A DNA stretch of 63,508 nucleotides, counting the filler, from Licmophora abbreviata (taxonomy: Eukaryota): the NCBI GenBank assembly GCA_900291995.1. It is 8 parts of 8 records of this genome, joined end to end, with 100 filler letters (N's around TTAATTAATTAA, not from the genome) between each part and the next. Parts side by side here need not be neighbours in the genome. Positions count along the whole stretch, not along the records: positions 19,135 to 30,283 come from OLMU01003945.1; positions 30,384 to 42,072 come from OLMU01003946.1; 6 more parts are not named here. The stretch is one strand, 5' to 3'. Below, one piece after another: positions 1,089 through 60,994 of this stretch. The notes under the pieces are model-generated. The model searched no databases and was not told the origin of the DNA. It was given only the letters and a program-made list of their open reading frames with translations. How positions within the stretch are numbered: the stretch's first letter is position 1; each line of letters opens with the position of its first letter. The position numbers and the translations under genes are program-made.

Positions 1089-3737
1089 ATGTCAACAAAA
1101 AGAAGTCCCAGTTCTACGCCCCTTCGCAGCGACTCGATTCGCGATCGAGTTCGTCTCTTTGAGCAGCTGTCGACGCCGCGAGATATCAGCACTCCTGCCG
1201 CCTGTGAAGGTAGGACGTCGGCAAAGCAGCAGACCTCGTTCTTTTCTCCTGAGAGACACCATGCCATACAGCGTTTCCAAAGATCATCGTCCAAGAGGAC
1301 GCTGGCGTTCCAGTCGCCGCCGCCCAGCAGCAACGGGCTGGGAGCTAGGAAAGGCGAACGAACACGTCCAGCTCACGGTCGTCAACAACACGACATCATA
1401 AAATCGACGGTGGTCGAAATCAAGACTCCTCTAGCCAATGTCACAAATGTCAAGCAAGGCCTCTCTACCATGGAGAATGCTAGTCACCAGGTTTCGAGCA
1501 AGTTTATGATCTCCGCCGGGACAGTCGAGGATAGACGAAGCATTGCAGGCAAGATTCACGCATGGCCAGTCGCCGAGACGAGCCGGGTGAACTCTCCCTG
1601 GACCGTCGAGCAGATGAGAGATAATTTCAGCAATCCCCCTCACAACCCATCACAAGAGACGAGCCATGAGGAGGTATCCGTGGTAAGGAGGCTTCAGTTG
1701 CAGTTTGAAGGAATGAATGCCGAGCGACGACGAAAGGCTGCTCTTTCTGGTTTCCTACCCGAGTTCAACCTACCTTGGCTGCCAGTGAAGGTAAACACCG
1801 TCCTTAGAGGACTTCTATTGGATTCGCCTTCTACGAAAACCAAAGTTACTCGACGAAAGAGTAACGAGCAAAGATATAGGAAGTGGAAACGCTGCTGGGA
1901 GATCCTGTACGCAATCTTGGCCATCGCTGAATTGCTCATTTGTTCGAATGGAGTGGGAATTGTCAAGCCGCAGAACGTAGCCATGGAGGTGTATCAAAAT
2001 GATGTGGATATTCCCCTCGCGTTTGCTACATCACCACCAGTAATGCCGGTCTCTTTGAACCGATACAGAGAAAAGGCCAAGCATCGTAGGCAGAGACGGC
2101 GGATTCCTTTTGTCGGCAAGACCAAAACGCTCTACTGGCACCGCACTTTCTTTGAGACGCTTCGCAAGATGACATGGCAAGACTTGATCAACAGAGTGTT
2201 TATAGTTTCTATAGCGATACATTCCGTGATGGAGTCGTGGAGGGCCGCATCATCCTGGAAGAAACGTGACGAAGAAAAGACTGTGCGATCATCACGGAAA
2301 GTCACCAAAAGGTCGAAGCGTCGGGTGCACAAGCTGGATACATCCTCTACCAATCGGCACTTCATCATGCGCTGGAGTGGAAACAGAGTCGAATGGAGCC
2401 GAACGACAACGGAAATTCTACTGTTTACATTCACTCTTGTACTACTGAGACTTCTTTTTCTTCCATTCCTGACGAAAAATCCGTTCACTCACGACAGAAC
2501 TGGAGATATACAAACATCTGCTCCACTTCGAGCGGAAGAAAGACTGTTGTCTCTTGGAGATGCTATGCTCATGGCCTTCACATCATGGTTTTACTCCAAG
2601 GCAACAACGCATCTTCGACGAAAAGTCAAGCAGTACGCAATGCAGTTTGTAACAATTGCAATAACAAGGCCGTGGGAAGCGTCGATTCGGGTGCAAAAGG
2701 GTTTCACTATTATTAGGTGGGCTAAGTTCTTGGCGCCATTGATCGGAACATCCAACAAACTCCGGGGTCAATACAACGACTATGTGAAGAAGAGTGATCG
2801 GAAACGTCGATCGGACATTGCGCAGCGCAGATGGGCCCAACTAGTGCGATTCATTCGGAGGGAACGGCAGCTGGATAGGGCCGTGGTACAGATGCAGAAA
2901 CGTTTTCGGTCAAAGCGCCAGCTGAAACTCCTACAGGGACTTCCAGTCAAAGAGCAGGCCCTGGTAGGCATTATTAAGGTGCAAAGACGATTCCGTTCTC
3001 GATCCGGCCTTGACCGCGTACGCGTCATCCGTGCGAAACGTAGACTATCTGAAATCGGGATCACGCAACGAATTTTGATACCGGAGACCGATCTGATAGT
3101 ACTCAGACTCCAAAGAGAGATACAGAGGTGCACTCGACGAAAGAAACCGATTCTGCTCCGTCCCAATACATCGTTCTCTGTTGCATGGAAACGCTCAACG
3201 ATCATGTGCGCAGTGATTGAAATCGCACAGCTACTCCTTGCACCCAGGCTGTCCCCGCATCTACGCAAGGTGCCAGTCGACGAGCTGCTGCGGCGCCTAC
3301 TGACGCCAAGTACGAAGACAAGCGCTGTGACGGTTCTGTGGCTCCAAATCTGGCTTATGTGCGTCGAGTTCCTCTCTTTCCGAACTGCGGAGTTGATAAG
3401 CTTGATTTGTTTTTTGGATGTCTTTGTGACATTCTTCACCGGCGAACTCGACAGCCGTACAGGGATGCTCATCCCGAAGTCCTTCTTCCGACGATGGATA
3501 CTGCCAGGCGTGGTACTTCAGCTAATTGTGAATCCTACAATGAAAGATTTGAGTGAAATCGCCAGAAGGGGAGTCAAATTCGCTCAATTGGTGGGACCGC
3601 TGCGAGTCTTTCATGTTTTGGTGGCGCTAATGCCAGTTTTCCGTGCGCTGACGGAGAATGTTATCGACATGTTTCATAAATTCATTTCGAGGGAGAACCG
3701 AATATCGGAAGACGCAAGGAAGAAGCTGCTGATTTGA
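1089..3737 (+). CDS. Membrane protein with two IQ-like motifs and a C-terminal segment resembling S1-S3 of CNG/EAG-type channels
   Basis: ORF of about 880 aa from the first ATG at 1089. IQ-like motifs are AVVQMQKRFRSKR and IIKVQRRFRSRS. The segment LLRPNTSFSVAWK...ICFLDVFVTFFTGELD resembles the start of CNBD-channel voltage-sensor domains. No GYG pore or cyclic-nucleotide-binding domain is visible. Confidence 0.7.
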   Translation: MSTKRSPSSTPLRSDSIRDRVRLFEQLSTPRDISTPAACEGRTSAKQQTSFFSPERHHAIQRFQRSSSKRTLAFQSPPPSSNGLGARKGERTRPAHGRQQHDIIKSTVVEIKTPLANVTNVKQGLSTMENASHQVSSKFMISAGTVEDRRSIAGKIHAWPVAETSRVNSPWTVEQMRDNFSNPPHNPSQETSHEEVSVVRRLQLQFEGMNAERRRKAALSGFLPEFNLPWLPVKVNTVLRGLLLDSPSTKTKVTRRKSNEQRYRKWKRCWEILYAILAIAELLICSNGVGIVKPQNVAMEVYQNDVDIPLAFATSPPVMPVSLNRYREKAKHRRQRRRIPFVGKTKTLYWHRTFFETLRKMTWQDLINRVFIVSIAIHSVMESWRAASSWKKRDEEKTVRSSRKVTKRSKRRVHKLDTSSTNRHFIMRWSGNRVEWSRTTTEILLFTFTLVLLRLLFLPFLTKNPFTHDRTGDIQTSAPLRAEERLLSLGDAMLMAFTSWFYSKATTHLRRKVKQYAMQFVTIAITRPWEASIRVQKGFTIIRWAKFLAPLIGTSNKLRGQYNDYVKKSDRKRRSDIAQRRWAQLVRFIRRERQLDRAVVQMQKRFRSKRQLKLLQGLPVKEQALVGIIKVQRRFRSRSGLDRVRVIRAKRRLSEIGITQRILIPETDLIVLRLQREIQRCTRRKKPILLRPNTSFSVAWKRSTIMCAVIEIAQLLLAPRLSPHLRKVPVDELLRRLLTPSTKTSAVTVLWLQIWLMCVEFLSFRTAELISLICFLDVFVTFFTGELDSRTGMLIPKSFFRRWILPGVVLQLIVNPTMKDLSEIARRGVKFAQLVGPLRVFHVLVALMPVFRALTENVIDMFHKFISRENRISEDARKKLLI

Positions 3738-3778: not shown

Positions 3779-6700
3779 TCATGAGCCATTTCGCGAGTCT
3801 TTCTGATATAGGTCCTTAACGTCCGAAATCAGTCCGCTTATGTCACGGTCCTCGTATTCGATACGATCGTACGCCCCGCTCGTAATCAATGCTGAGCAAT
3901 GATTCAAATGATAGCGCAGGTGATTCGCAACAATCCACTTCATAATGTCCTGTAGACAGAGAAAATTGGTGGATCAGCTATTAAACAGCAATTGCCCTTT
4001 GCAACAAACTGACACCACAAGCGTACACTGCTTACATCTTCGGGATAGTAGAAAACTTTGATATAGGTGTCGACGTACTGCTTTCCACGGTCTGTAGACA
4101 CGGGTGACGGGGGTAGAACCGACGCGTCGTAGCTGATACGCTTCATCATCGACTCAGTACGAATTCCGTTCGCATAGTCGGACAGATCCATACTCATCAG
4201 CGACCGCCCTTCCGTGGAGCAGAACGGGACCCTTGAGAAACCCTCGAGAAGTGCGAGGAATCCTCCTTCCACCATGTGCTCGAAAGTTTTCTGTCGAACA
4301 ATGGAGGGGAGTGGTGATTCAGACAACGATAGAAGTTTCCAGATAACGGCAACAGCATCGCACAATGCCTCAACATAATCATTCGAATGCTCATTTAGCT
4401 GAGATGCCTCCCAAATCAAATCGACTGCAAGAATCTGAAAGCAGCGCAAATGGAACCAGAATGAGAACGGGAACGCGTTGGTCGACATTGACTCAAGGTA
4501 CACAGAACGAACTCAATCGCCTAGCCCACGCGTTTGTCGTACCTCTTGAACAACTTGTCTCCCCGCAATAGCGCGGACGCTCGAGACCTGGCTGGCGAGA
4601 CCAACCATCAGAGGAGACGCGCGGCGTGCGTGTGCCACGTAGGTGTCGAATACCCGATGCCGTGATTCCTCCCGTTTTCTACCGTTTTCCGTATCGTGTC
4701 CATTTGACGGATCGGTGCACGTCTCTATGAAGTGAAGGATAACCTCAAGAAACTCCGATACCAGCAAACAGCTCCATGCGGCTCCTTCGCGCTTTGCAAG
4801 CGTAACTGCGACGCTTTCCACTGAACTCTTCACAGAAGCCACCGGCGACGACACTGCGTCAACAGGATCGCTCATCCACTGCTCAATTTTCTGAAGGTTC
4901 ACTATGCCTTCCAGACTTCGCTGGCCTCTTTCAATGAAATCTCGGACCAATGATCTCTCAACCCTATCAGACGAAAGCGGCGCACATATTTCGGCGTCAA
5001 CCGTTCCCGGAAGTGCTGAAAGTTGGCCTTTTCCACGAATCGGCAGTTTTGTGCTACTCGGCCGTCGACCAAATGCGATACGCGCGGACCCCGACGATCG
5101 TCTTCTATGATGGCTTCGCACATGAGGCTTAGCAGGTTCCCGCTGCTCTTTGGGGGGTTCCAATGGTGATGGGGGTACAGACCCTAGGATGATTTCCTCG
5201 TTCCTGGAGTTGCCAGCGCACAGTCGAAACACAGTAGTAAAGTAGAGATCACTGAGATTCGTGACGACATCGCAGACATCGTCTGTAATCAGGGGCATCT
5301 TCTTGGCTACGGACAAGAGACGTCCATACCACTTCACGAGACACTCGGAAATCGAACGCGTCGCAAACAATCGGATAGAGTCAGAATCACACCCTAACAA
5401 GGAGATCATCAAGGCCTCCCGCTTTGCTTCATGTGGCTTGTGGACCATCTCGCCCACACCAAGATTGTCACCGGAACTCGCCAATTGCATGTCGAAGAAC
5501 GGGTTTCCTTCCGTATCGGAGTTGAAAATGGGAAACTTTGCATTTGTTTTCTGGTAGACCTGGAGGCTGTTATGCCAGTATCTTGCTATACGCGTTCTCG
5601 AGTCTTTCGTTTCTATAATGGACATCTGTCTAGCAACTGAGTCATGCAAATGCTGCGCACGGATAAAGAGAAGATGCATGAGAAGACTTTCACCGTTCAC
5701 AGCGCCTGCACCCGCCACGTCTACTTACTACTCCAACCGACCGGCCACCACCGTTTCCAGCACGGCTATTGTCGAATTTACAAGACCCGAGGCCGCTCAG
5801 TCGCCAGTCCTCTCTAGAAAGCGCCACGCCGGTCGAATTCATGGCTGCTACATGTACAGCTCGGAGATGACGGCGAAAGAGTTCACAAAGCTTCACACGC
5901 AGTTCGTTTTCGACGCTCCTGTCCAAAAGGCACTTGATTTTGGAAGAATCCCCCCCATCGTCGCCAAGGAACCCCCTTCCGAGAGTGAGAAATTGCTGCG
6001 TAAGTTGCAACACGGCATGCTGACTTTCCATGTCCGCCGACCAGAGAGAACCCTCGTCCGCTTCGTCCTCGGGAAACAACACAATTTTACCCGCAGTGTG
6101 CAGGTACCGATCCAGACATTTGACCAGGGCACCCTCACATCGTCTCCAAAGTTGTATCTTAAACTCACCCAAACGTCGAGCTGTTCTATCCTGTTCATGA
6201 TTTGAGCGGGTATGCCAACGAAGCAAAATACTGTGACAATGCAACACGTCTGTAAGAAGCGCACAAAGTCGATGATAAACCATAGGAAGATAATGAAGAT
6301 CCGACTCAAAACCGAATCGAATTGTCACGAGATTGTGAGTAAGCGAAAGGAGCTTTGCAACGTCGTAGTTGTCGTGTCTCAGCTCGAATCCTAAGTGGAT
6401 AAGATCCTTGTCAAACTCAGAGTCTTCGGCATCGGTCGGATCCAAGAGGGCACGAGCGAAGCACTTGTCAACCTGAAAGCACAGCGTTTCCTGTATGCTC
6501 TGCGACCAGGAAGAAGAGAGGTCGAGATCAGTGAGATCACCACTTGTGATCGCCTCTTCTGTACCGTCTAGAGTCAATCGTTGTGTATCTTGCGAAGCCT
6601 TCACCAGAGCTTCATAATCGACCTTTGAATACGACCTTGGAGCTTGACAAACTAGTGATACGTAGACTCGAAGGACAGTGTCAATCCTTATCGAAAACGT

Positions 6701-8128
6701 ATCGAAAATGCCACTGGCTCGTTGTCGGAGGCCCTCAAGACATTTTAATTTCGACAAATGGTCGTCTCGCAAGGCTTCGGTCGAAAAGCGAGATGACATC
6801 GATAGGATTTCTGTGTGGCCGCCTCTGACTCCAAACGACTCCATCTTTTCTCGTAAACGTCGTTCCATCTCCACCAGTCTTGCAGTCTTCTCGAGAGCAA
6901 CTCTCAACTCTTTGTACTGGTCCCGAAGATCAAACTCTCGCAGTAGTAGCTCTCCGCCGACAATTCCAGAAAAGTCTGCTTCGCTACCTCGAGCAACCTT
7001 CAACGAATCTTCGGTACGAGCAGAATACATTTTGGCCATTGTCAAATTACTATCCAGATCTTGCAGTAGTTGATTGCCGGTATCCAGCAGGTGTGTCCGC
7101 TGGAAAATATCCTTCATAAGCTTGGCTTGCACCTGGACATGGGATGCGTCCAACTCGGAAAGCTGACGTGTCACGAAATCGTCCATGAGTGTCAGGTCGG
7201 GGTTCTTACTGACCAACGGGACATGATCCCACGGTGTCGACTGTAGGACTCTCAATGTGGCATCAATTTTGGGAAGGTTGTCGTTCCAAGCAACGTCGTC
7301 AAGCTCATGGCCGGTGACGCCGTCTTTGTAAGCCGCCTCCAGCCGACGACGAGCAAAACGTCCCTCCGGGGATGTTACGTCGGTGAAGGGTAAAATGCCA
7401 TAGATCGACGTCGATCCAAACACTACTTGGCGTCTGTGTGTAGGTGTCCGTGTTATAATCTCGTCGTCTAAGTGCAGCGGCACATGAATGGTATCGATCG
7501 GCAAATCGTTGACCTGTACAGGATCATTTGCTGTCCTTTCTGCGGCTCCGTCATACTCTGCAACCGACCCGTCTACTACTGCAACGTTCGCCTCCTGGAA
7601 ATCACCAAATTCATTTTCGTCATCGTCAACAACCCCAGAACTCTCAACGGATACGTCCATTTTACCACACCCTTCCACAAGACCGTGCTCGAGAAGCAGT
7701 GCGTCAAGCTCGGGCAGTTGGTTCAGCTCGTCGGCTAGTTCCTTACTGCGTGCTTGTTCAGTTTGTATCTTCGAATCGCCATCCAGAATCCAATCATGCT
7801 CTAGTTTCGATATTGAGGCTGCCGATGGCTGATCATAGGCTTCGTGCAAGGCTGACATTGCCTCGTCAATGTTGCTGCAGAGAACACCGCCAGGATATAT
7901 GGGAAAATCTTGCTCATTGAAGAACGAGCTGTCGTCCCAATGGCTTGAGGAGTCATCTGCTCTAGCATGCTGGCTTTCTACTTGACTCTCGTTCTGGTCA
8001 AAGAGAGTCTCGTTCCTATTCGACAAGGAAGATAGCGAGTGCTTCATCCAGAGCTGCATGCGGCGAGTCCGCTGTCGTGTCTGGCTCCAAGCGCCCGGAC
8101 GCTGTGGAGACGGCGATGGCAATGACAT
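3779..8128 (-). CDS. VPS50: Syndetin / VPS50 (EARP complex subunit), 4 exons
   Basis: Exons 8128-5729, 5652-4543, 4434-4036 and 3949-3779 are joined in frame by GT..CAG introns. C-terminal motifs LLEGFSRVPFCSTEGRSLMSMDL and YVDTYIKVFYYPE match the syndetin C-terminal domain. Confidence 0.8.
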
Positions 8129-19034: not shown

Positions 19035-19134
19035 NNNNNNNNNNNNNNNNNNNNNNNNNNNNNNNNNNNNNNNNNNNNTTAATTAATTAANNNNNNNNNN
19101 NNNNNNNNNNNNNNNNNNNNNNNNNNNNNNNNNN
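19035..19134. other. Artificial scaffold spacer (44 N + TTAATTAATTAA + 44 N)
   Basis: An identical 100-nt structure occurs 7 times. The 12-mer gives stop codons in all six frames. Confidence 0.98.
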
Positions 19135-26151: not shown

Positions 26152-28296
26152 ATGAGCGGCCGTGCACCAGCCTCGCAACAGGCCATGTCCACGGATGCTC
26201 CTGATCCGATGGCAGGGGCCGGGGATGCGTCCGAATCAGCTGGACTTCCCGGTGTCCGCGTCGTTCAAGATCCCGCGGCGATCCAGCTCCGGTTGGATGG
26301 AGCCATGACCGTGCAGTCGATCAAGAACCTTCTGAAGAATCAGGGGTCGACGGAACAGTTCTTTGGAAGAGATGGAGAGCCTGTGTCAGAGCCTATGGAT
26401 AACGATGTGCTTTGTGGACGAGGAGGGCTCGCCAACAATCATGTCGGGAACAAGTGGTTCCGAGAGCTTGTTCGTTGTAACAGAGAACTCTACCATAGGT
26501 CCAAGAAACAGCAGAAAATGATGGTCAGCAAGGCCATCGTCGCCGCCATTACATCACAGCAGCCCCCTGGGCGCTTCTTGGAACTCAGCTGTAAAGACAA
26601 GCGCTGGTATCCAGTCGAATACAAACGAGCAGTCAACAAGACATCGCAGACGCTTCGAGAGAAACCAATCGATCCGCCTGGCGCTGCGACGCCGGCTAGC
26701 GGAGAAATAGAGCGCAAAGCATCCTTGCTTTCGAATATCGGCGCTCTTTCAAAAACTATGGATGGTATCAAGAAAACTTCGGGGCTTGGGCTCCTCAATG
26801 ATCCTAGCAGCAAACCCGCACTGAATTTTCCCGCAAATGTCGGCGTGTCCATCAAGCGGAAGTACCCGGCGGGACAAGAAGAGGAGGTACGGCCACAAGA
26901 GCCAGCGAAGAAGCGTCCTATGTCCAGCCCTAGCGACGAAGACCCTGAATCTCTGCCATTGAACGAACAGCCTTCTGCCTCTCCAAGTCTTGTGCAGTTC
27001 TTGCATGACACCGTCTCCTTCATTTCCGGCAAGAAGAATCCTTCAATCAGTGCCGCCAAGCAACAAAATCAGGGCGAAGGAGCAGAGGCGCGCCGACGAG
27101 AGCTCGTCAAGAGACAGAGAGAACTCCAACAGGAACAGATCCGCCAGATGGATGTGTTGAGACGCCGACACGTTGCGCAGCAGCAACGCCTCCTTCAACT
27201 AGCGGGCATGGCACCTGGAATGCTGCCGTTTCAGACGATTATTCCAGCTCATCAGTTCCCCCCAGCTTCTATTCTTCCTCTGAATGGTTCGCCCACAATT
27301 CGCCCACCACCACTCGGCATGCCGTCAGGTGCGGCAGCCCATAGTGCCACGCCGAAGCCCATTCTGTCCCGCGGGTCACCGCCGAGTCTTCTTCAGACGC
27401 GCGGTCCGCACGCCTCTGCGACCACCAAGCCACCAACAATGGCTACTCGGTCGAGGTCGCAGTTACTAGAAGAACATAACGAGCCTGAAGATGGGCCAGT
27501 GCCAATGTTGCCGTTCTTAGTGAGACCTTCCGGTGGACCTTTCGCCATGCCGCCTCAGCCAGACGATAAGCCGCCTGAAGAGGACACTCCAGACTTTCCG
27601 CTCGCTGTTGTAGAAGTGCCTGGCGCTTCTGCGGAAGAGTCGGTCACCGCGAGTGCGACGACTATGGAGGATACTCCCGATGCTGACCCTGAAGGGCCGC
27701 CGCGGACGCGACTCACCAGTCAAGTCTCTGACTGGCTACAGTCGTTCTTTCCTCTCCCCACGGAGGGTGGAGCGCCGGATGTCAGCGCTATGGACGAAGC
27801 GTATCGCCTTGAAGTTGTCGTGGGCGATAAGAAGCCCCCGGCATCGCATGCTGCTGATGAAGTCGGGGGCTCTGCTGACGGAGTCGGCTTAGCAGACGGC
27901 ACTGCTACAGACGGCGAGGACGAGATCCCTCCTCCTCTACCATTGGCTCGATCAGTTAGCTCGGCACTTTTGGCGTTGGCCACAAGCCCATCCCGATTCC
28001 TCTCTGGTCTGACGGCACTCTGGGATCGAACTCCGTCAGGAGGCGAGCCGGAAGGCGATGAAGACGAGGCCATTTTTCCGCCAAATCTAACATTCGGTAC
28101 ATCGCTGGGATCCCTCAGCATGCCTCCATCGCTAGGTCAGACAGAGGTAGTTGCGGTGCCCCCGCAGGCTCAGGGGCATTTATCTTGGGGGACGCGAATG
28201 AGAGGCCGCGAGAAACAACATTCGCTTCTCGACGACGTGGAAGAATCAGAAGATGAACAACGATTTCGGAGCTTACAGGCTCCATCGGATGCTTAG
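26152..28296 (+). CDS. DUF6824-type domain protein (diatom-expanded family) with a long disordered C-terminus
   Basis: PMDNDVLCGRGGLANNHVGNKWFRELV...PPGRFL...W...KTSQTLRE is the characteristic motif set. Confidence 0.8.
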   Translation: MSGRAPASQQAMSTDAPDPMAGAGDASESAGLPGVRVVQDPAAIQLRLDGAMTVQSIKNLLKNQGSTEQFFGRDGEPVSEPMDNDVLCGRGGLANNHVGNKWFRELVRCNRELYHRSKKQQKMMVSKAIVAAITSQQPPGRFLELSCKDKRWYPVEYKRAVNKTSQTLREKPIDPPGAATPASGEIERKASLLSNIGALSKTMDGIKKTSGLGLLNDPSSKPALNFPANVGVSIKRKYPAGQEEEVRPQEPAKKRPMSSPSDEDPESLPLNEQPSASPSLVQFLHDTVSFISGKKNPSISAAKQQNQGEGAEARRRELVKRQRELQQEQIRQMDVLRRRHVAQQQRLLQLAGMAPGMLPFQTIIPAHQFPPASILPLNGSPTIRPPPLGMPSGAAAHSATPKPILSRGSPPSLLQTRGPHASATTKPPTMATRSRSQLLEEHNEPEDGPVPMLPFLVRPSGGPFAMPPQPDDKPPEEDTPDFPLAVVEVPGASAEESVTASATTMEDTPDADPEGPPRTRLTSQVSDWLQSFFPLPTEGGAPDVSAMDEAYRLEVVVGDKKPPASHAADEVGGSADGVGLADGTATDGEDEIPPPLPLARSVSSALLALATSPSRFLSGLTALWDRTPSGGEPEGDEDEAIFPPNLTFGTSLGSLSMPPSLGQTEVVAVPPQAQGHLSWGTRMRGREKQHSLLDDVEESEDEQRFRSLQAPSDA

Positions 28297-28857: not shown

Positions 28858-30282
28858 CTAATCATTGCAACGCTCTTTGAGAGAAGAGAACGCAGTTTTT
28901 ACCCATTCGTCTTTCGACGTTTCCGGCAGGTCTTCGATCTCGCCGAGGTCGAACAAGGCTACCTTCTTTGTCAATGGGTGGCAACCAACGTGTCGCCAGC
29001 GCACATCCATGTGCTGCTTTCCTTTGTGTGCAAACACATAAAGTGCCTTCCAAAGTGGCCCCTCCCCCTCCTTAGCTGTGTACCTGGTCCGATCACCCTG
29101 TTTAATGGGCCAGAAATACGGCATAATCAGACAAATCTTGCCACCCGAAAGCTTCGCGACGATAGACTTCCCAAAATGTTCTCCATAAACCATTTTCCAG
29201 TTCTCCAGTTCCACCTTGGCTACGCGTTCCGACGCCGATTCAGTCTTTTCCAGTTCCGACGGGAGTAGCCTTTCAGGCGTTGCTGCATTCTTCCTGTCGA
29301 CCTCAGGAATATTGTAAAACTTGACGACGCAAACTCCAGCCCCGCCATGAGAGACAGCCAAACAAGCTGAGCCATTTGCTCCAAATCCGAGTGGCTGCAA
29401 CAGATAGAGATATTTCAACTGCGCATTCGCCAAGGCGTACTTTAGGTAATTGATTTTGCCCGCTGAGAGTTTCTGAAACGCAAACACAGTGTTTTCAGTA
29501 CTTTGGGACTCAGTGTGTACAGTACAGGGGGATGTGTCGCGGAACCGGATCTTTCGCGCGAGCTTGTCATTGCCCGAGTGGAGCTGAGAGTAGTAGGCCA
29601 GACCTTTCGCTGACTTGTACATGAGCAAGACAGCAGACGCAATCAATTTGATCATGTCATGACCTGAACCTGGACCGTCAATGGTCTTGGCTGCGTAGAG
29701 TACTCGTGATTCTCCATCACAGTCTTTCTCGGTTAAACCATTCGCCTCGCCGCGCTTGCGCTTATTGTCATCAGAGGAAATGATGGCAACTTCCAAGGCG
29801 GTCTCCTCATCCTCATGGAAGAGTTGTACTGGTGAGCAGCCATTTGTGGTCGTATCTTCTGCCATATCATCATTCTCTGGGTGGAAGGGTTGTTCTGGTG
29901 AGAAGCCATTTGTGGCCGTATCTTCTGCCATCTCTTCAACCGCTATGTTGCGACAAGCGTCGCATCGTAGAGACGCCGTAGATGCAAGCATCCACTTGTT
30001 TCCCGTTGTGATAATTCCAAATGCTTGGGGCATGCCCCCTAGACGAATGGTCTGAAGTTGGTCGTAAAGCTGCCCTGCCACCTTGCCGCTCCCGAAAATC
30101 TTGTCGTCGTTTGTCTCGTCATGAGGCTTTTTGATTTCTATACATCCGATTGGGAGTTTTTTGGAAGCCAATACCAGCATCACATCGAACTCCATTGACA
30201 ACATGCTTCGTTGGACTACTACGTGGATCATGTGGCGCAAACCAAGTGCGCGGATGACAGCAGCAGCGAGGTTTGAGACCCT
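28858..30282 (-). CDS. PD-(D/E)xK nuclease-like domain plus degenerate kinase-like domain (Crinkler-type C-terminal architecture); 5' part runs into the gap
   Basis: The frame is open from the gap edge. REase-like motifs are FDVML..PIGCIEIKKP, GQLYDQL and AFGIITTGNKW. Kinase-like motifs are LGFGANG, VVKFY, LIMPY, HMDVRWRHVG and LFDL. Confidence 0.7.
   Translation of the reverse strand, partial: RVSNLAAAVIRALGLRHMIHVVVQRSMLSMEFDVMLVLASKKLPIGCIEIKKPHDETNDDKIFGSGKVAGQLYDQLQTIRLGGMPQAFGIITTGNKWMLASTASLRCDACRNIAVEEMAEDTATNGFSPEQPFHPENDDMAEDTTTNGCSPVQLFHEDEETALEVAIISSDDNKRKRGEANGLTEKDCDGESRVLYAAKTIDGPGSGHDMIKLIASAVLLMYKSAKGLAYYSQLHSGNDKLARKIRFRDTSPCTVHTESQSTENTVFAFQKLSAGKINYLKYALANAQLKYLYLLQPLGFGANGSACLAVSHGGAGVCVVKFYNIPEVDRKNAATPERLLPSELEKTESASERVAKVELENWKMVYGEHFGKSIVAKLSGGKICLIMPYFWPIKQGDRTRYTAKEGEGPLWKALYVFAHKGKQHMDVRWRHVGCHPLTKKVALFDLGEIEDLPETSKDEWVKTAFSSLKERCND
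29814..29931 (-). repeat. 66-bp in-frame tandem duplication (MAEDTATNGFSPEQPFH / MAEDTTTNGCSPVQLFH)
   Basis: Two near-identical copies with period 66, ending at 29865 and 29931. Confidence 0.9.
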
Positions 30283-30283
30283 G

Positions 30284-30383
30284 NNNNNNNNNNNNNNNNN
30301 NNNNNNNNNNNNNNNNNNNNNNNNNNNTTAATTAATTAANNNNNNNNNNNNNNNNNNNNNNNNNNNNNNNNNNNNNNNNNNNN
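30284..30383. other. Artificial scaffold spacer
   Basis: 44 N + TTAATTAATTAA + 44 N. Confidence 0.98.
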
Positions 30384-30796
30384 TTTTCCTCTTTCTCTTT
30401 ATAGTTCGCGATTGTTTGGTCATCCGCCTTCTTTTCTTCCTTCCGCATCTTCTCTTTCTCTTCGTCTTTCGCCTTCATTTCCTTCTCCCGCCTCTTCTCT
30501 TTCTCTTCAAAATTCGCCTTCATTTCTTCCTCCCGCCTCTTCTGTTCCTTCTTTATCTTTTTGATCTCTTGGTCTTTCGCCTTCATTTCCTTCTCCCACT
30601 TCTCCTCTTTCTCTTTAAACTTCGCCATCATTTCCTTCTCCCACTTCTCCTGTTTCTCTTCAAACTTCGCCATCATTTCCTTCTCCCACCTCTCCTGTTT
30701 CTCTTCAACTTTCGCGATCGTTTGGTCTTTCGCCTTCATTTCCTTCTCCTGCGACTCATCCTTTTCCTTCTCCCACGCTTCGTTTGTGCTTGTCAT
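30384..30796 (-). CDS. E/K-rich repeat helix (15-aa units such as KWEKEMMAKFEEKQE); probable N-terminus of the 28858-30282 gene
   Basis: ATG at 30796, open to the gap, with a 45-bp tandem period (AAACTTCGCCATC at 30617 and 30662). Same strand as the ORF on the other side of the gap. Confidence 0.6.
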
Positions 30797-30937
30797 CGGA
30801 TTCGATCGAGTGATAGGGCTTCGCCGACAGAATGTCGTCTGCGGAGCGCGTATTGCAGCGGGTCGCTAAGATGCAGCACCAGTCGTGTCAAGGCTAACTA
30901 GCGCCCTTCGAGTGGAAGAGAATTCTTCGTTGATGAC

Positions 30938-31048
30938 GAAATCTGAAATCTGAAATCTCGAAATCTCGAAATCTCGGGTTTGTCGACGTCGTGGCGCTCT
31001 CCCAAGTCGCAAGACTGATTCGATTCATTCGATTCGACTGATTCATTC
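30938..31048. repeat. (GAAATCT[C])x5 tandem plus a GATTC/ATTC cluster in a divergent promoter
   Basis: Read directly. Related arrays occur at 46011-46033 and 57699-57768. Confidence 0.85.
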
Positions 31049-31178
31049 AAACAGAAATTCGATTGCTGGACGTTTGCTAGGATTCGTACGACGTACAGTC
31101 GTTCTCTCACAGCCGCACAGTTTTCGTCACAGTTCAGATTTTGGACCACGCGGTATTCCCACGAGCAACAGTTTGATC

Positions 31179-31758
31179 ATGGCCAAGTGTGTTTGCAGTC
31201 TCGTAAGCGAAAGCGGATCGGCCGTGACGGGCGTATTGCGCCTGTCACAGAACAGCGAGGATGCTCCCACTCTCATTGAAGGCGAGCTCAGAGGTTTGGG
31301 CCCAGGAAAACACGGTATCACCGTCAATCAGGCGGGCGACCTGTCGGAGGGAGCGGCGACCTGTGGTCCCATTTTCAACCCGTTTGGTGAGTGCCATCGC
31401 GTGCGCCCATGAAATAAAGACCTGTCAAAGGTGGTGAGGGATTCTACATTTCGAAGAGTGTTCTCACTTTGTGGCCCTCTTCTCGCTGGTTTCGCCAGGC
31501 AAGACGCACGGCGCCCCAGAGGATGACGAACGGATGATGGGGTCACTAGGAAACGTTGTGGTGGATGAGACTGGAAAGTGTAACGTGGCGATTCAAGATA
31601 AGGTCTTACAGCTTTTGGGTCCTCATTCGGCGGTGGGAAGGTCCATCGTGGTGTATGCCAGCGAAGACGATCGCGGAAGAGGTGGGCACGACAACTCGCT
31701 CTCGACCGGGAACGCTGGGCCCAGGGTAGCGGCGGGGGTCATTGGAATCTGCGTGTGA
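31179..31758 (+). CDS. Cu/Zn superoxide dismutase-fold protein lacking most metal ligands, 2 exons
   Basis: Exons 31179-31386 and 31499-31758. GLGPGKHG, GD, FNPFGKTHG, LGNV, VGRSIVV, DDRGRGG and TGNAGPRVAAGVIG align to SOD1 over its full length. Confidence 0.88.
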
Positions 31759-42072: not shown

Positions 42073-42172
42073 NNNNNNNNNNNNNNNNNNNNNNNNNNNN
42101 NNNNNNNNNNNNNNNNTTAATTAATTAANNNNNNNNNNNNNNNNNNNNNNNNNNNNNNNNNNNNNNNNNNNN
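42073..42172. other. Artificial scaffold spacer
   Basis: 44 N + TTAATTAATTAA + 44 N. Confidence 0.98.
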
Positions 42173-43858: not shown

Positions 43859-43958
43859 NNNNNNNNNNNNNNNNNNNNNNNNNNNNNNNNNNNNNNNNNN
43901 NNTTAATTAATTAANNNNNNNNNNNNNNNNNNNNNNNNNNNNNNNNNNNNNNNNNNNN
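43859..43958. other. Artificial scaffold spacer
   Basis: 44 N + TTAATTAATTAA + 44 N. Confidence 0.98.
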
Positions 43959-45853: not shown

Positions 45854-46151
45854 CTTTGTCGGAGGGGAATCAGGGTGCAAAGAGATCAAATGTACACTGA
45901 AGATGGGCGTTCGGTATGTATGAATGAACGCAGGGTGAGTCAATCCAGGACCGTCGTGGCTGCCACTCCAACTTTGTGGTCATTCTGTGTCGAAAGAAAT
46001 GTCGAAACTGGAATGAATCTGAAATCTGAAATCACGAGCCGGCCCGTCGCGCTGACCTGTCCGCCGACCCCATCGCAATTTTTGGCGCGCAATGATAACT
46101 GCGCTAACATCGCACGGCACTCCAAAACTCATCCCACACCGGAAAGCCACC

Positions 46152-48126
46152 ATGGCGAAGCATGCGAAGCATTCCTCGCTGCTTGACGAGAATGACTCGT
46201 CCGACGACTCCCTTCTCCTCGACTATAGTCCGTTTGGCTCCAGGTCGTCAAAGAAGCGAACGCGACGTGAACAGGAAGAAAACTCGCACCGCAAGGAGCG
46301 CAAGCGCAGCAGGCAGAAAACCGAGCAAGACGTACCGCCGCAGACAGAACCAGCAGCTGTGAGCGTCGATGTCCCGAAAGATGAAGGCTGCATGGGGGGA
46401 CGTGACGACTCTGACAAGGATAGTATCGCATCGGAAGACATGGAGACTCCCTATGCAGAGAACCTGCTGTCCGACGACGATGACATAGACTGGGACGAAG
46501 ACACGCTTTCCGATAAGCGCACAGAACCACTGCGACCTGGAGATGTCATTGCCTACTGTGATCCAATCTTTGTGGCCGGGGATTCGCGTGGCAAACGAAA
46601 AGCTACTGTCCTCAACACGGACCCCGATCGATCCACCATGATCACACTGTCGAACGGGGAAATACTGCCGAACGACACGGAGGTCAAGCGTACGAAGGTT
46701 TTCGAGTATGGGAAACTTCATCCGCATCCACACGGGCTTTTTCGTCCTATTGAGTCCTTCCGAATCACCAAGCTGGGATCCGGTGGACTCGAGGCAGGCT
46801 TTCAGCACGCGGCACGTCGCGTCAGCCGAATCGTTGACAAGAACGTCGTCAAGCTACAGAAACGTGCAAAGTTGGATGGGTTTGCTCCGACGGACATACT
46901 TCACAAGGGAATCAACTCACGCATACCTAAGGGAAACCCCACGACTTCTAGTGATCCCTGTGAGAGCATTGAATCCTTTAGCGACGAGTCACGTCCACCG
47001 AAACGAAGGGCTCCCGTCGGTCCCGGTCCGAGTAGCACTCTTCGTGGCCGTCGCACGAAACGACTTTGCAGTGTGAAGAGACGATATGCCCGATCCTCAG
47101 AGCTAATCAATTCAGAATCAGAGGTGGAGGAACGTTCAGTATTACACCCGAAGCTGACAGGAATCGATAAACCTACATGGAACGCCACGTCTGCGGCTTT
47201 GAGCTCGTCTGAATCAAGCGATTCCGAGCCCATCGGTTTCGTCCAGGATCGGAAACGCAAGAACCTTGTAGAAGCTCGGCCCAAACATAAAGACACATTG
47301 ACCAGGAACAGCGACTCTGAAGCCTCCGTTGATTCTGTCGAAGAAGGGATTACCAAAGGCGCGCGGCCCCCCGCTCTGACGAACAAGACCTCTTTGCCGC
47401 GGAGAGTCGGCGTTGGCCTGCAACATACTCGCCGTGGTTCGAAGAAAGCCGAGAAGAAGACGCCTGTCTTGAAGCTATCCTCGCTTCGAAAAAAGTGCAT
47501 ACGCAATGATAACGATGTGGGCCTGTCCAGCGATAGCAGCAATCATTCGGCCTGCCGAAGCATGGATTCGACAGGCAAAACTGGCGTTCCGGGTGCAGGC
47601 AGTCACACGAGCACACAAGCTTCTCCCAACGCAACGCTATCATCGATCCAACAGACCTTTAGTCCCGTTGTCGATCTAACCCAGGAGACGAAGCTTGCGA
47701 GTTCAACTTCTATGNNNNNNNNNNNNNNNNNNNNNNNNNNNNNNNNNNNNNNNNNNNNTTAATTAATTAANNNNNNNNNNNNNNNNNNNNNNNNNNNNNN
47801 NNNNNNNNNNNNNNCACAGCTCGCGAAAGGACCGCCAGCATATCAGCGTCACGGATTTTTTGAAGACACCAACGGGAGCTCCGGAGGGAGAGACTGATTT
47901 TCTGGATTCGGACGACGACGACGAGTCCAGGCGTCCTGCTCTGCACATGAAGCGTTTGTCGCGTTCTGCTGGGAACTCGTCGGCCTTCAAAGAGAACCTG
48001 AAGGCTTCCCCGCAGTCCCCTGTTGAAGACATGGCATCGAATTGGAATACGCCCAGGACCTGTAGCTCCAAGAAAACCCGCAAGACGTACGGTAGCAGGA
48101 GCCGCAAGTATCATCCGAAGACCTGA
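46152..48126 (+). CDS. Large low-complexity hypothetical protein interrupted by a gap
   Basis: Open from 46152 to 47714 up to the gap, and from 47815 to 48126 after it. One globular-looking block (LRPGDVIAYCDPIFVAGD...FRPIESF). Continuity across the gap is inferred. Confidence 0.6.
47715..47814. other. Artificial scaffold spacer
   Basis: 44 N + TTAATTAATTAA + 44 N. Confidence 0.98.
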
Positions 48127-49800: not shown

Positions 49801-49900
49801 NNNNNNNNNNNNNNNNNNNNNNNNNNNNNNNNNNNNNNNNNNNNTTAATTAATTAANNNNNNNNNNNNNNNNNNNNNNNNNNNNNNNNNNNNNNNNNNNN
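49801..49900. other. Artificial scaffold spacer
   Basis: 44 N + TTAATTAATTAA + 44 N. Confidence 0.98.
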
Positions 49901-55711: not shown

Positions 55712-57424
55712 TTAGAAGTCTTCAAGGCCGTAGGGATCGAAACTCTCCAAATTCTCATCACCGAGCTCGAGTGATGTTGCACTCGAGTCGTCCCCGTACA
55801 GCAGTTCATAGAGATCTCGTCGCTCCTCACGCAAGCGGTTGATGCTGCCATCAGGTTCGACCCCCTTTGAAACCTTTTGTTCTTTTTCTTCGCTAGTCTT
55901 GGCAGCCTTGGCTCGTTTCTTTCGACTTGGCTCAGCTCTGACCGCAGCCGCGCCCTCCATGCCCGCGACGTTCGCCTTCTTCTTGACACTCTTCTTCGCT
56001 GATTGCGTTTTCTTTTTCCTCTTGGCGCGCGCAGGTAAAACTACTCGCACGTCATCCATTTTCTCTCGTCGCGTTGCTCTTGCTGACGATTTTGGAGCGG
56101 CCGCTTTGGCTGCCTTCGGCTTGGGAGCAGCCTTTGGTCTCGGGGGTCTTGATGCAACCGCTTGCGCTCGCTGCCTTTTAATCGATGCAACGGTCTTCTG
56201 CCGATATTCGGCATCTTGCCACTTGGCCTTCAAGGCTGCACTTATCTTTTCACGATGCGATTTTGCGTGCGGACCTGCCGGTTTCCGTCGACTCGCCATT
56301 TTCTCCAGCATCGCCGCTCGGAACTCTGGATTCTGCCATTTCTTCTTAAGTGCATGGCTGATTTTCTGTTTGACACTGGGATCAGCGTTGCTCGAGTGAG
56401 ACTTCTGTAGCATGTTTTCGCGATACTTGGCATCCTGCGACCATCGCTTGCGCAGCGATTCGCTGATCTTTGCTCGGGTTTCTTCCGAGTGCGTAAAACC
56501 TCGACGTACTTTTGTTGGATCTACGGAGCGCTTGCTCATTTCGCCATTGGCCCATTTCTTCTTGAGAATCTGACTGATCTTTTGCTTTGTCTCTTCCGTA
56601 GGTTTGTATCCACCGTTTGCAGTTCGACGCGCTCTGCGTTCGGCGTCCTTTCGTCTTCGCTCCTCCTTCATTCGAGCCTTGTGCTCTTCCTCCGTCAGAC
56701 CCATATCCTTTAGCTTTTGCAGAAAAGACTCTCGATTTCTTGCGCGAACCCCAGCTGCAATTCTGGCGCGGACTTCGGGCGACCGATGCTTTCCTTTGTT
56801 CCATGGCGTTTTCCCCTTGTTGGCTGCCGATATCTTGGCCTTGGAGGCTTCGGTATGCGAATATCCACCGTTCGCCGTCGGTTTCGGAACGTCACAGTCA
56901 GTATCATTTAAAGTTACGCCATTTGAAGCTGGAAGCGACGGTGTCGACCCGTTCACAACCGCCACCTTGATCGAATCCTGGTGTCCTGCGACGCTATCAT
57001 TGACGGCATGGCCATTGGCATCAGCGTCGGTTGCATTTCTAGAATCCACGGCTTCCAGAGAAGGCAAATCTGATTGTATCGTTTCCGTTGCTGAGCTATG
57101 CAGGCGCAGCAGGAAAGGATCCCGTCTCCGATGCGTTTGGCTGGATTGACTCGACGACATGACCGAATGAAGTCTATTGTTCTTTGAAAAGGGGAGGATC
57201 CCAGCAGGGAGCGAAAAGGGCCGCCCTTGGAAAGCAGAGACCATCGCTATCACTGAAATTATGGTCAAGGACGACAAGAAGAACGAGGACGGCGTTCGTC
57301 GCCTCCGTCGGTATCGTACCGATCGATCCTCCGAGGAATAGTACAGGATGTGTGATGGCGTCGCTCGATTCTCGCTACCGAAACCGCCGGTAAAGTTTTG
57401 AATTTTGTTGAATCTTTCCACCAT
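55712..57424 (-). CDS. NUMOD3-repeat nucleic-acid-binding protein, probably plastid-targeted
   Basis: HTEASKAKISAANKGKTPWNKG, PTEETKQKIS, HSEETRAKISESL and HAKSHREKIS. A hydrophobic segment ends in VSA-FQ. The true start is uncertain. Confidence 0.8.
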   Translation of the reverse strand: MVERFNKIQNFTGGFGSENRATPSHILYYSSEDRSVRYRRRRRTPSSFFLSSLTIISVIAMVSAFQGRPFSLPAGILPFSKNNRLHSVMSSSQSSQTHRRRDPFLLRLHSSATETIQSDLPSLEAVDSRNATDADANGHAVNDSVAGHQDSIKVAVVNGSTPSLPASNGVTLNDTDCDVPKPTANGGYSHTEASKAKISAANKGKTPWNKGKHRSPEVRARIAAGVRARNRESFLQKLKDMGLTEEEHKARMKEERRRKDAERRARRTANGGYKPTEETKQKISQILKKKWANGEMSKRSVDPTKVRRGFTHSEETRAKISESLRKRWSQDAKYRENMLQKSHSSNADPSVKQKISHALKKKWQNPEFRAAMLEKMASRRKPAGPHAKSHREKISAALKAKWQDAEYRQKTVASIKRQRAQAVASRPPRPKAAPKPKAAKAAAPKSSARATRREKMDDVRVVLPARAKRKKKTQSAKKSVKKKANVAGMEGAAAVRAEPSRKKRAKAAKTSEEKEQKVSKGVEPDGSINRLREERRDLYELLYGDDSSATSLELGDENLESFDPYGLEDF

Positions 57425-60894: not shown

Positions 60895-60994
60895 NNNNNN
60901 NNNNNNNNNNNNNNNNNNNNNNNNNNNNNNNNNNNNNNTTAATTAATTAANNNNNNNNNNNNNNNNNNNNNNNNNNNNNNNNNNNNNNNNNNNN
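60895..60994. other. Artificial scaffold spacer
   Basis: 44 N + TTAATTAATTAA + 44 N. Confidence 0.98.

Follow-up and report, generated by a model that had tools for sequence, protein, structure and literature searches.

What would a free-living diatom do with a single protein that joins a nuclease to a protein kinase? The question is raised by a locus on the minus strand at positions 28858–30796 of a 63,508-nucleotide (nt) stretch of Licmophora abbreviata DNA (GCA_900291995.1), which consists of eight contigs joined by spacers and is called here, at its full length, the window. Two open reading frames (ORFs) flank one of these spacers, a 474-codon frame encoding the nuclease and kinase domains and a 137-codon frame rich in glutamate and lysine. 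Judging by the architecture of the family to which the protein belongs, the two frames are probably parts of one gene. That this is one intronless gene for a self-regulated conflict protein, in which the kinase would gate the nuclease, is a reading that we regard as evenly poised between right and wrong.

The minus-strand frame at 28858–30283 (translation from 30282 to 28858) ends in a stop codon at 28858–28860 and is open into the gap. As it contains no stop up to the gap edge at 30283, it is truncated by the contig end and does not begin at a start codon. The motifs listed in an earlier note on this DNA, EIKKP (E49-I-K51-K-P, following D33), GQLYDQL, GIITTGNKW, LGFGANG, VVKFY, HMDVRWRHVG and LFDL, were all found exactly in this translation. 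The repeat ORF rich in E and K that the earlier note had placed across the gap on the same strand is also present, from an ATG at 30796 to 30384. The parts of the locus are as follows.

30384–30796, minus strand: header ORF, 137 codons, ATG at 30796, open into the gap; probable N-terminus of the protein (linkage inferred from family architecture)
30284–30383: assembly spacer of nominal length, one of seven identical spacers
29968–30283, minus strand: PD-(D/E)xK nuclease domain, residues 1 to about 105; start of the first helix lost in the gap
29416–29967, minus strand: linker, residues about 106–289 (predicted model, repeat scan)
28861–29415, minus strand: minimal protein-kinase-like domain, residues about 290–474 (DUF5898 match, model, conservation)
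30797–31178: intergenic region of 382 nt, presumed promoter, bounded by the minus-strand ATG of the header and by the plus-strand ATG (31179) of a divergent Cu/Zn superoxide dismutase (SOD)-family gene

Relatives were collected by an exhaustive HMMER search of 1.84 billion cluster representatives, which returned 575 proteins at E ≤ 1e-3, of which 148 have E ≤ 1e-10 and 10 have E ≤ 1e-30. Conservation and Pfam counts given below cover 70 of the best 150 relatives.

Residues 1–130 were folded with 56 relatives, giving a model with a predicted local distance difference test (pLDDT) score of 87. The model has an alpha-beta-beta-beta-alpha-beta-beta core (helix 2–12, strands 19–27, 30–38 and 44–50, helix 56–81, strand 88–92). 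D33 (30184–30186) lies in the second strand (30–38), E49 (30136–30138) in the third (44–50), and K51 (30130–30132) one residue past it. These positions are nearly invariant among the relatives (D33 in 69/70, E49 in 68/70, K51 in 70/70). In an exhaustive VIA-align comparison the top match was the nuclease domain of BpuSI (Z 11.4, 112 residues aligned, root-mean-square deviation (RMSD) 3.5), followed 3.5 Z units lower by HsdR of Vibrio vulnificus (3h1t; Z 7.9). Nearly all of the top 50 are PD-(D/E)xK proteins, including Cas4, Hjc, lambda exonuclease, RecE, the nuclease domains of AddAB/AdnAB, tRNA-splicing endonucleases and MGME1. Foldseek gave a weak result, with BpuSI again the best match (E 6.3e-3, template modelling score 0.63, RMSD 2.8 over 104 columns) and none at E ≤ 1e-3; Pfam matches were also weak and confined to one relative each, for HSDR_N (E 0.0015) and VRR_NUC (E 0.0046). 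By the model, residues 1 to about 105 are a PD-(D/E)xK nuclease fold with an intact catalytic triad, and the restriction-endonuclease fold expected in the first half of the protein is thus supported by the BpuSI match and the near-invariant D33, E49 and K51, Foldseek by itself being weak. The D…ExK catalytic layout is common to the window protein and the restriction nucleases BpuSI and HsdR. It differs from the type IIG and type I restriction enzymes in lacking methyltransferase, helicase and specificity modules, and in its eukaryotic, nuclear setting.

The second half of the protein matches Pfam DUF5898 (E 1.6e-13; score 51 bits, cut-off 28.9) over residues 298–434 (28981–29391), covering profile positions 2–108 of 109, and 69/70 relatives match the same family. 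The one paper found to name DUF5898, PMC9758233, does so in its methods, in a list of Pfam PKinase clan families. The family is a 109-position model of unknown function that covers the N-lobe up to the catalytic loop and is uninformative on nuclease, header and biology. The kinase landmarks are a glycine loop (G299, G301, G304), K321 (29320–29322), E358, H424-x-D426 (29005–29007) with H431, and D445 (28948–28950) in an xDLG motif. Conservation is strong at G299 and G301 (69/70), K321 and E358 (70/70 each) and D445 (67/70), while position 426 is D in 52/70 and E in 11/70. The position of the catalytic-loop asparagine is occupied by histidine in 60/70 and asparagine in only 7/70, and xDLG stands in place of DFG. 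The HxDxxxxH and FDL variants, which had been taken as signs of an atypical kinase, are therefore real and family-wide.

The kinase relationship was also found by other routes. A profile built from the 70 family members, searched against the sequences in the Protein Data Bank, matched CK2 (2.4e-7), TTK, CK1 and other kinases at about 2e-7, and Foldseek with the AlphaFold model returned AAK1, Rio2, Myt1 and CK1 at E of about 4e-6. With VIA-align, CK1-delta reached Z 10.8, aligned to its residues 1–208 only, and the minimal kinase OspG of Shigella Z 10.7, with 155 of its 169 residues aligned. In the model the protein ends 29 residues past D445 with a single helix (454–473), and the activation segment with its APE motif and the substrate-docking C-lobe are missing; the full C-lobe, activation segment/APE and helices F–I of a canonical eukaryotic protein kinase (ePK) are not found. 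Residues about 290–474 are, according to this model, a minimal protein-kinase-like fold of the size of OspG, in agreement with the kinase-like fold that the earlier note had predicted for the second half. OspG/NleH and RIO kinases are alike in fold and size, the domain ending one helix beyond the equivalent of the DFG motif. No sequence relation to them is detectable beyond the kinase fold, and both lack a fused nuclease; OspG is an effector that bacteria inject, and RIO acts in ribosome biogenesis. The PADLOC and NCBIfam models gave no match to the window protein, and one relative weakly matched the MADS kinase model (1.1e-6) and the PD_DExK model (0.0018) of these collections.

In the AlphaFold model of the nuclease-kinase protein (mean pLDDT 78.4), the two domains are connected by an acidic segment of low confidence, a KRKR cluster (residues 174–177), a helix (207–234) and a beta hairpin that leads into the kinase. 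The linker contains a tandem duplication of 66 nt (22 residues) at 29816–29938, the copies of which are 89% identical. A metagenome contig about 91% identical to the gene has the 46 nt at 29769–29816, adjoining this duplication, replaced by 10 other letters, indicating insertion and deletion variation between relatives.

The family to which this protein belongs is most likely large, very divergent and eukaryotic, with hypervariable headers. The best 150 of the 575 matches are 25–41% identical to the query, none exceeding about 41%. As a yardstick we used the neighbouring V-ATPase A, an unusually conserved protein, whose best match is 92% identical, compared with a best of 33–39% for the nuclease-kinase protein; the contrast indicates that the latter gene has no close orthologue in the collection. 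The organism-named matches of V-ATPase A are from Odontella, Conticribra, Thalassiosira, Skeletonema, Discostella and Cyclostephanos, all of which we take to be diatoms, and the best of these, at 86–92% identity, bear out the assignment of the DNA to a diatom host.

Full-length relatives have about 550–650 residues and extend beyond the query's first residue, on the N-terminal side, by a median of 155 residues. This extension consists of a short start, often with a 'WL..NP.H' motif, followed by tandem repeats and then a conserved stretch, 'RSL..P.L.D.T.S.PH...H..A.V ... CDSE', which runs into the first helix of the nuclease. The extension contains exact tandem repeats in 25/69 relatives, with a period of 7, 14 or 21 in 23 of the 25. 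The architecture of the family is accordingly a variable heptad-repeat header, a conserved region of about 75 residues, the nuclease, a disordered linker and the kinase.

A pattern scan of JGI and ENA metagenome contigs with a 15-sequence alignment as query yielded six loci. In two of them (L001 and L002) the whole protein, from header to kinase, is encoded by one ORF without introns (601 and 605 codons, respectively), among ordinary eukaryotic genes. Between them the header block is 35% identical as against 54–68% for the other blocks, and their heptad repeats are unrelated. A further locus (L004, at about 6001–7328) is a copy of the L001 relative (5527–7332) that is one base shorter, with a break in the reading frame close to the nuclease domain's 'GMIATGN' strand, which is either a sequencing error or the mark of a decayed allele. 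No relative was found in IMG/VR viral contigs or GTDB prokaryote genomes by scans limited to the same kind of pattern, nor by a metagenome scan with the single window protein as query. A word-indexed protein search gave no match with the window protein and, with the 15-sequence alignment, returned only a member of that alignment.

Two groups of proteins are known to combine these domains in the same order. According to the accessible text of a review (PMC5289972), restriction endonuclease (REase) plus kinase accounts for about one sixth of CR-protein C-termini, the REase being held to be the toxin and the kinase its regulator. CR proteins are found in free-living eukaryotes as well (PMC5289972 and PMC12957317, in the portions available). 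The window protein resembles Crinkler/CR proteins such as CRN8 of P. infestans in layout, a restriction-endonuclease-fold domain followed by a protein kinase, and the CR-type C-terminal pair proposed in the earlier note is indeed present, as seen from the DUF5898 match and the BpuSI (Z 11.4) and OspG (Z 10.7) matches. Its header, however, is a charged tandem repeat in which no ubiquitin-like domain was detected, and it has no signal peptide. Membership of the Crinkler/CR proteins found no support in the header searches: Crinkler or ubiquitin-like header families match none of the 70 relatives and do not match the visible 137-residue header ORF. With no such header family detected and no signal peptide, the window protein should not be filed as a Crinkler.

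The Spok proteins (Spok1–4), spore killers of the fungus Podospora that are absent from the earlier note, are an equally close analogue in layout. To our knowledge, such single proteins combining nuclease and kinase are the only known one-gene toxin-antidote meiotic drivers. The available part of PMC6660238 describes SPOK as an N-terminal coiled coil formed from a repeat of variable length, a PD-(D/E)xK nuclease and a kinase. In SPOK3, according to the same text, K240 of the nuclease is needed for killing, whereas resistance requires D667 of the kinase and a cysteine cluster; the SPOK kinase is said to stand nearer to eukaryotic-like kinases such as Kdo than to full ePKs. SPOK1 kills via DNA damage, and its kinase-dead form fragments DNA in E. 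coli and yeast (PMC9972908, available portion). Compared by layout with these descriptions, the window protein has the same order of domains: a repeat header (a coiled coil in SPOK), a nuclease with a catalytic lysine and a kinase with a catalytic aspartate. Like SPOK, it would be intracellular, and its kinase is likewise minimal. V. vulnificus HsdR, at rank 2 in our VIA-align comparison (3h1t), is also reported in the accessible text of PMC6660238 as the best HHpred match of the SPOK3 nuclease. The window kinase differs in being, by Pfam, a DUF5898 domain and not Kdo-like, and the host is a diatom and not an ascomycete. In the Atlas, whose feature look-alikes are leads only, a DUF5898 cluster scored 0.98, an oomycete kinase cluster 0.96 and SPOK2_N clusters 0.92–0.93, the nuclease part remaining below 0.9.

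From the intact and conserved nuclease and kinase sites, the freely varying header and linker, the minimal kinase and the examples of SPOK and CR proteins, we propose a nuclease gated by a kinase. The header and linker vary freely, compared with the strong conservation of the nuclease triad and the catalytic residues of the kinase. The charged tandem-repeat header would be helical and oligomerising and would set self-association or specificity; a homodimer prediction for it scored 0.30, the mark being 0.32. The nuclease would be the effector, cutting nucleic acid, probably DNA in the nucleus. The protein's own minimal kinase, devoid of a substrate-docking C-lobe, would gate, license or neutralise the nuclease in cis or in trans, either by autophosphorylation or by phosphorylating a shared target. 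This logic follows what has been shown experimentally for SPOK and proposed for the REase and kinase tails of Crinklers. By analogy with these systems the role may lie in genetic conflict, as a single-protein toxin-antidote or selfish element, or as an intracellular defence or cell-death switch. Signs of conflict-type evolution are the 575 divergent clusters, the hypervariable headers of paralogs and the variation by repeats, insertions and deletions.

Several observations weigh against the proposal. The gene is set among housekeeping genes, as the earlier note had stated and as a Pfam scan of the window ORFs confirmed, and neither inverted repeats flanking the gene nor any other marks of a mobile element were found. 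The L001 and L002 paralogs are similar in DNA within the coding region only, with unrelated flanks, and are thus not part of a larger mobile unit. The cysteine cluster of Spok (C-x3-C-x13-C-x5-H-x7-H) was absent, in a relaxed pattern, from all 151 sequences searched (the window protein and 150 relatives), and Pfam SPOK2_N matched none of the 70 relatives at E ≤ 0.01 and not the window protein at E ≤ 1; for these two reasons the protein should not be filed as a Spok. A C-terminal basic cluster, counted by a loose pattern, occurs in 34/69 relatives, and the window copy has no such tail, only the internal KRKR of residues 174–177. The window header has no significant match among the headers of relatives (best blastp E 1.4), and its linkage to the nuclease-kinase ORF is drawn from architecture only. 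Finally, two strongly conserved active sites are compatible with any enzymatic role, housekeeping included.

This last point leads to the alternative that survives best, although we consider it unlikely: a housekeeping nucleic-acid enzyme, in which a nuclease of DNA repair, recombination or RNA processing is regulated by a kinase-fold domain and no conflict is involved. In Ire1 and RNase L, for example, the nuclease is controlled by a kinase or pseudokinase domain. Near-invariant active sites in the 70 relatives and a housekeeping neighbourhood free of transposon marks are what such an enzyme would lead one to expect, and tRNA-splicing endonucleases, Cas4, MGME1 and Dna2 are among the structural neighbours of the nuclease at Z 5–7.5. 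It accords poorly, however, with the extreme divergence of the protein (a best match of 33–39% when V-ATPase A reaches 92%), with hypervariable headers and dispersed paralogs, and with the frame break in one metagenome copy; nor was any named repair family matched in Pfam or NCBIfam.

The header ORF consists of E and K to 55% and is built from units of 15 and 21 residues repeated in tandem (45, 63 and 153 nt as periods in the DNA), so that the charged repeat header described in the earlier note is real. It starts with MTSTNEAWEKEK, and its N-terminal residues, MTSTNEAWEKEKDESQ, contain by inspection no hydrophobic, signal-like segment, in line with the signal peptide having been reported as absent. 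A Pfam search with the header ORF gave nothing at E ≤ 1, and the want of a match to other headers is expected for hypervariable repeats of low complexity.

The gap at 30284–30383 consists of N44, TTAATTAATTAA and N44. Seven such identical 100-nt spacers join the eight contigs of the window, and the length of the gap is therefore nominal. Their positions are given in the following line.

19035–19134, 30284–30383, 42073–42172, 43859–43958, 47715–47814, 49801–49900 and 60895–60994: identical spacers, N44-TTAATTAATTAA-N44

Other window genes are likely to be split by spacers as well, as a 553-codon plus-strand frame is open into the spacer at 47715, with a 103-codon open frame after it, and a 368-codon minus-strand frame is open into the spacer at 60895.

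Both ORFs flanking the gap at 30284 are open into it on the same strand, the header ORF starting from an ATG. In the 15 relatives with a match to the regular expression, the motif 'RSL..P..D.T.S.PH...CDSE' lies 68–85 amino acids (median 75) before the query's first residue. By comparison with these relatives, the gap should conceal at least about 68–85 codons, comprising the conserved region of about 75 residues and perhaps more repeats; at least about 225 nt should thus be missing. Marine-metagenome contigs contain pieces of 268, 118, 197 and 151 nt identical to the gene (0 differences). A 457-nt metagenome contig, 93% identical (22 differences in 326 nt), extends 131 nt past 30282. Translated by hand, the first 30 overhanging nucleotides read in frame S-I-D-S-E-G-C-V-V-I, corresponding to the 'DSE' helix start of the family, so that the nuclease frame extends further upstream, as expected from the family. 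The contigs aligned at the left side of the gap are short pieces, none of which bridges to the header. The order of header, conserved region, nuclease, linker and kinase in the family indicates that the two window ORFs probably form one gene.

Alternatively, the two ORFs may be unrelated, either because contigs that are not adjacent were joined or because the gap contains the end of a separate gene; in that case the nuclease-kinase protein would have another N-terminus, and the ORF rich in E and K would belong to another protein. The spacer, which recurs seven times in the window at a fixed length, is an artificial linker with stops in all six frames, and the header, apart from matching no header of the relatives, does not have the 'WL..NP.H' motif that precedes the repeats in close relatives. 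Yet both frames enter the gap without a stop and on one strand, the header frame beginning at an ATG; the architecture of the family calls for just this kind of repeat header, with about 75 residues missing after it; and the upstream continuation of the nuclease frame has been demonstrated in a close relative. We think it quite improbable that the two ORFs are unrelated.

That the diatom secretes or translocates the protein as an effector of the Crinkler type, directed against other organisms, is very improbable: many Crinklers end in REase plus kinase, and CR proteins have been found in eukaryotes that live freely (PMC5289972; PMC12957317, in the portions available), but the header starting with MTSTNEAWEKEK has no signal-peptide-like N-terminus, Crinkler and ubiquitin-like families are unmatched in the header and in all 70 relatives, and the basic clusters frequent at the C-termini of relatives resemble nuclear-localisation signals for use inside the cell.

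The genes around the locus were inspected as well. Just beyond the 3' end of the nuclease-kinase frame, 26152–28296 (plus strand) encodes a protein of 714 codons that matches Pfam DUF6824 (E 4.8e-27), and a literature search for DUF6824 gave no paper. On the other side, the 382-nt divergent region contains microsatellites at 30937–30976, (CGAAATCT)x5, and at 31017–31048, a GATTC-type repeat. It is followed by the two-exon Cu/Zn-SOD-family gene (31179–31409 and 31471–31755, plus strand; Sod_Cu E 3.7e-11 and 7.5e-20), which is transcribed away from the header ORF. Its first exon, read by eye, contains HGITVNQAGD, a stretch where SODs carry two metal-binding histidines. Its sequence suggests that the product may be a SOD-like protein without the copper site. 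Farther away, a 570-codon ORF at 55712–57424 (minus strand) contains a NUMOD3 motif (E 3.8e-20), unusual in a nuclear gene amid housekeeping neighbours; NUMOD3 is a DNA-binding module typical of homing endonucleases. Long ORFs without a Pfam match at E ≤ 1e-5 are found at 46092–47714 (plus strand, at least 541 codons), 1089–3737 (plus strand, 882 codons) and 5690–8128 (minus strand, 812 codons).

Among the literature searched, no paper on this diatom family or on the function of DUF5898 was found, and the two papers that mention Spok together with Crinkler are unrelated to it; the CR survey of Zhang et al. (2016) may already list diatom members. As REase-kinase modules in free-living eukaryotes are already in print, according to the accessible text of PMC5289972, the advance lies in a new variant and a new lineage and not in a new principle. 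The same three-part layout, with both active sites intact, is seen here in a free-living diatom and in a family of hundreds of very divergent members. It is a doubtful, speculative extension of these findings that diatoms carry a large, fast-diversifying, Spok-like family of single-protein toxin-antidotes, in which a nuclear DNase would be restrained only by its own minimal kinase and an allele-specific header would choose the copies that protect each other. If this were true, such proteins would be meiotic or gamete-stage drivers, or switches of self/non-self recognition (allorecognition, abortive infection), in a major group of marine algae. If gating of the nuclease by the kinase holds, the family would offer a first handle on intragenomic conflict and cell-death control in diatoms, and a function for Pfam DUF5898.

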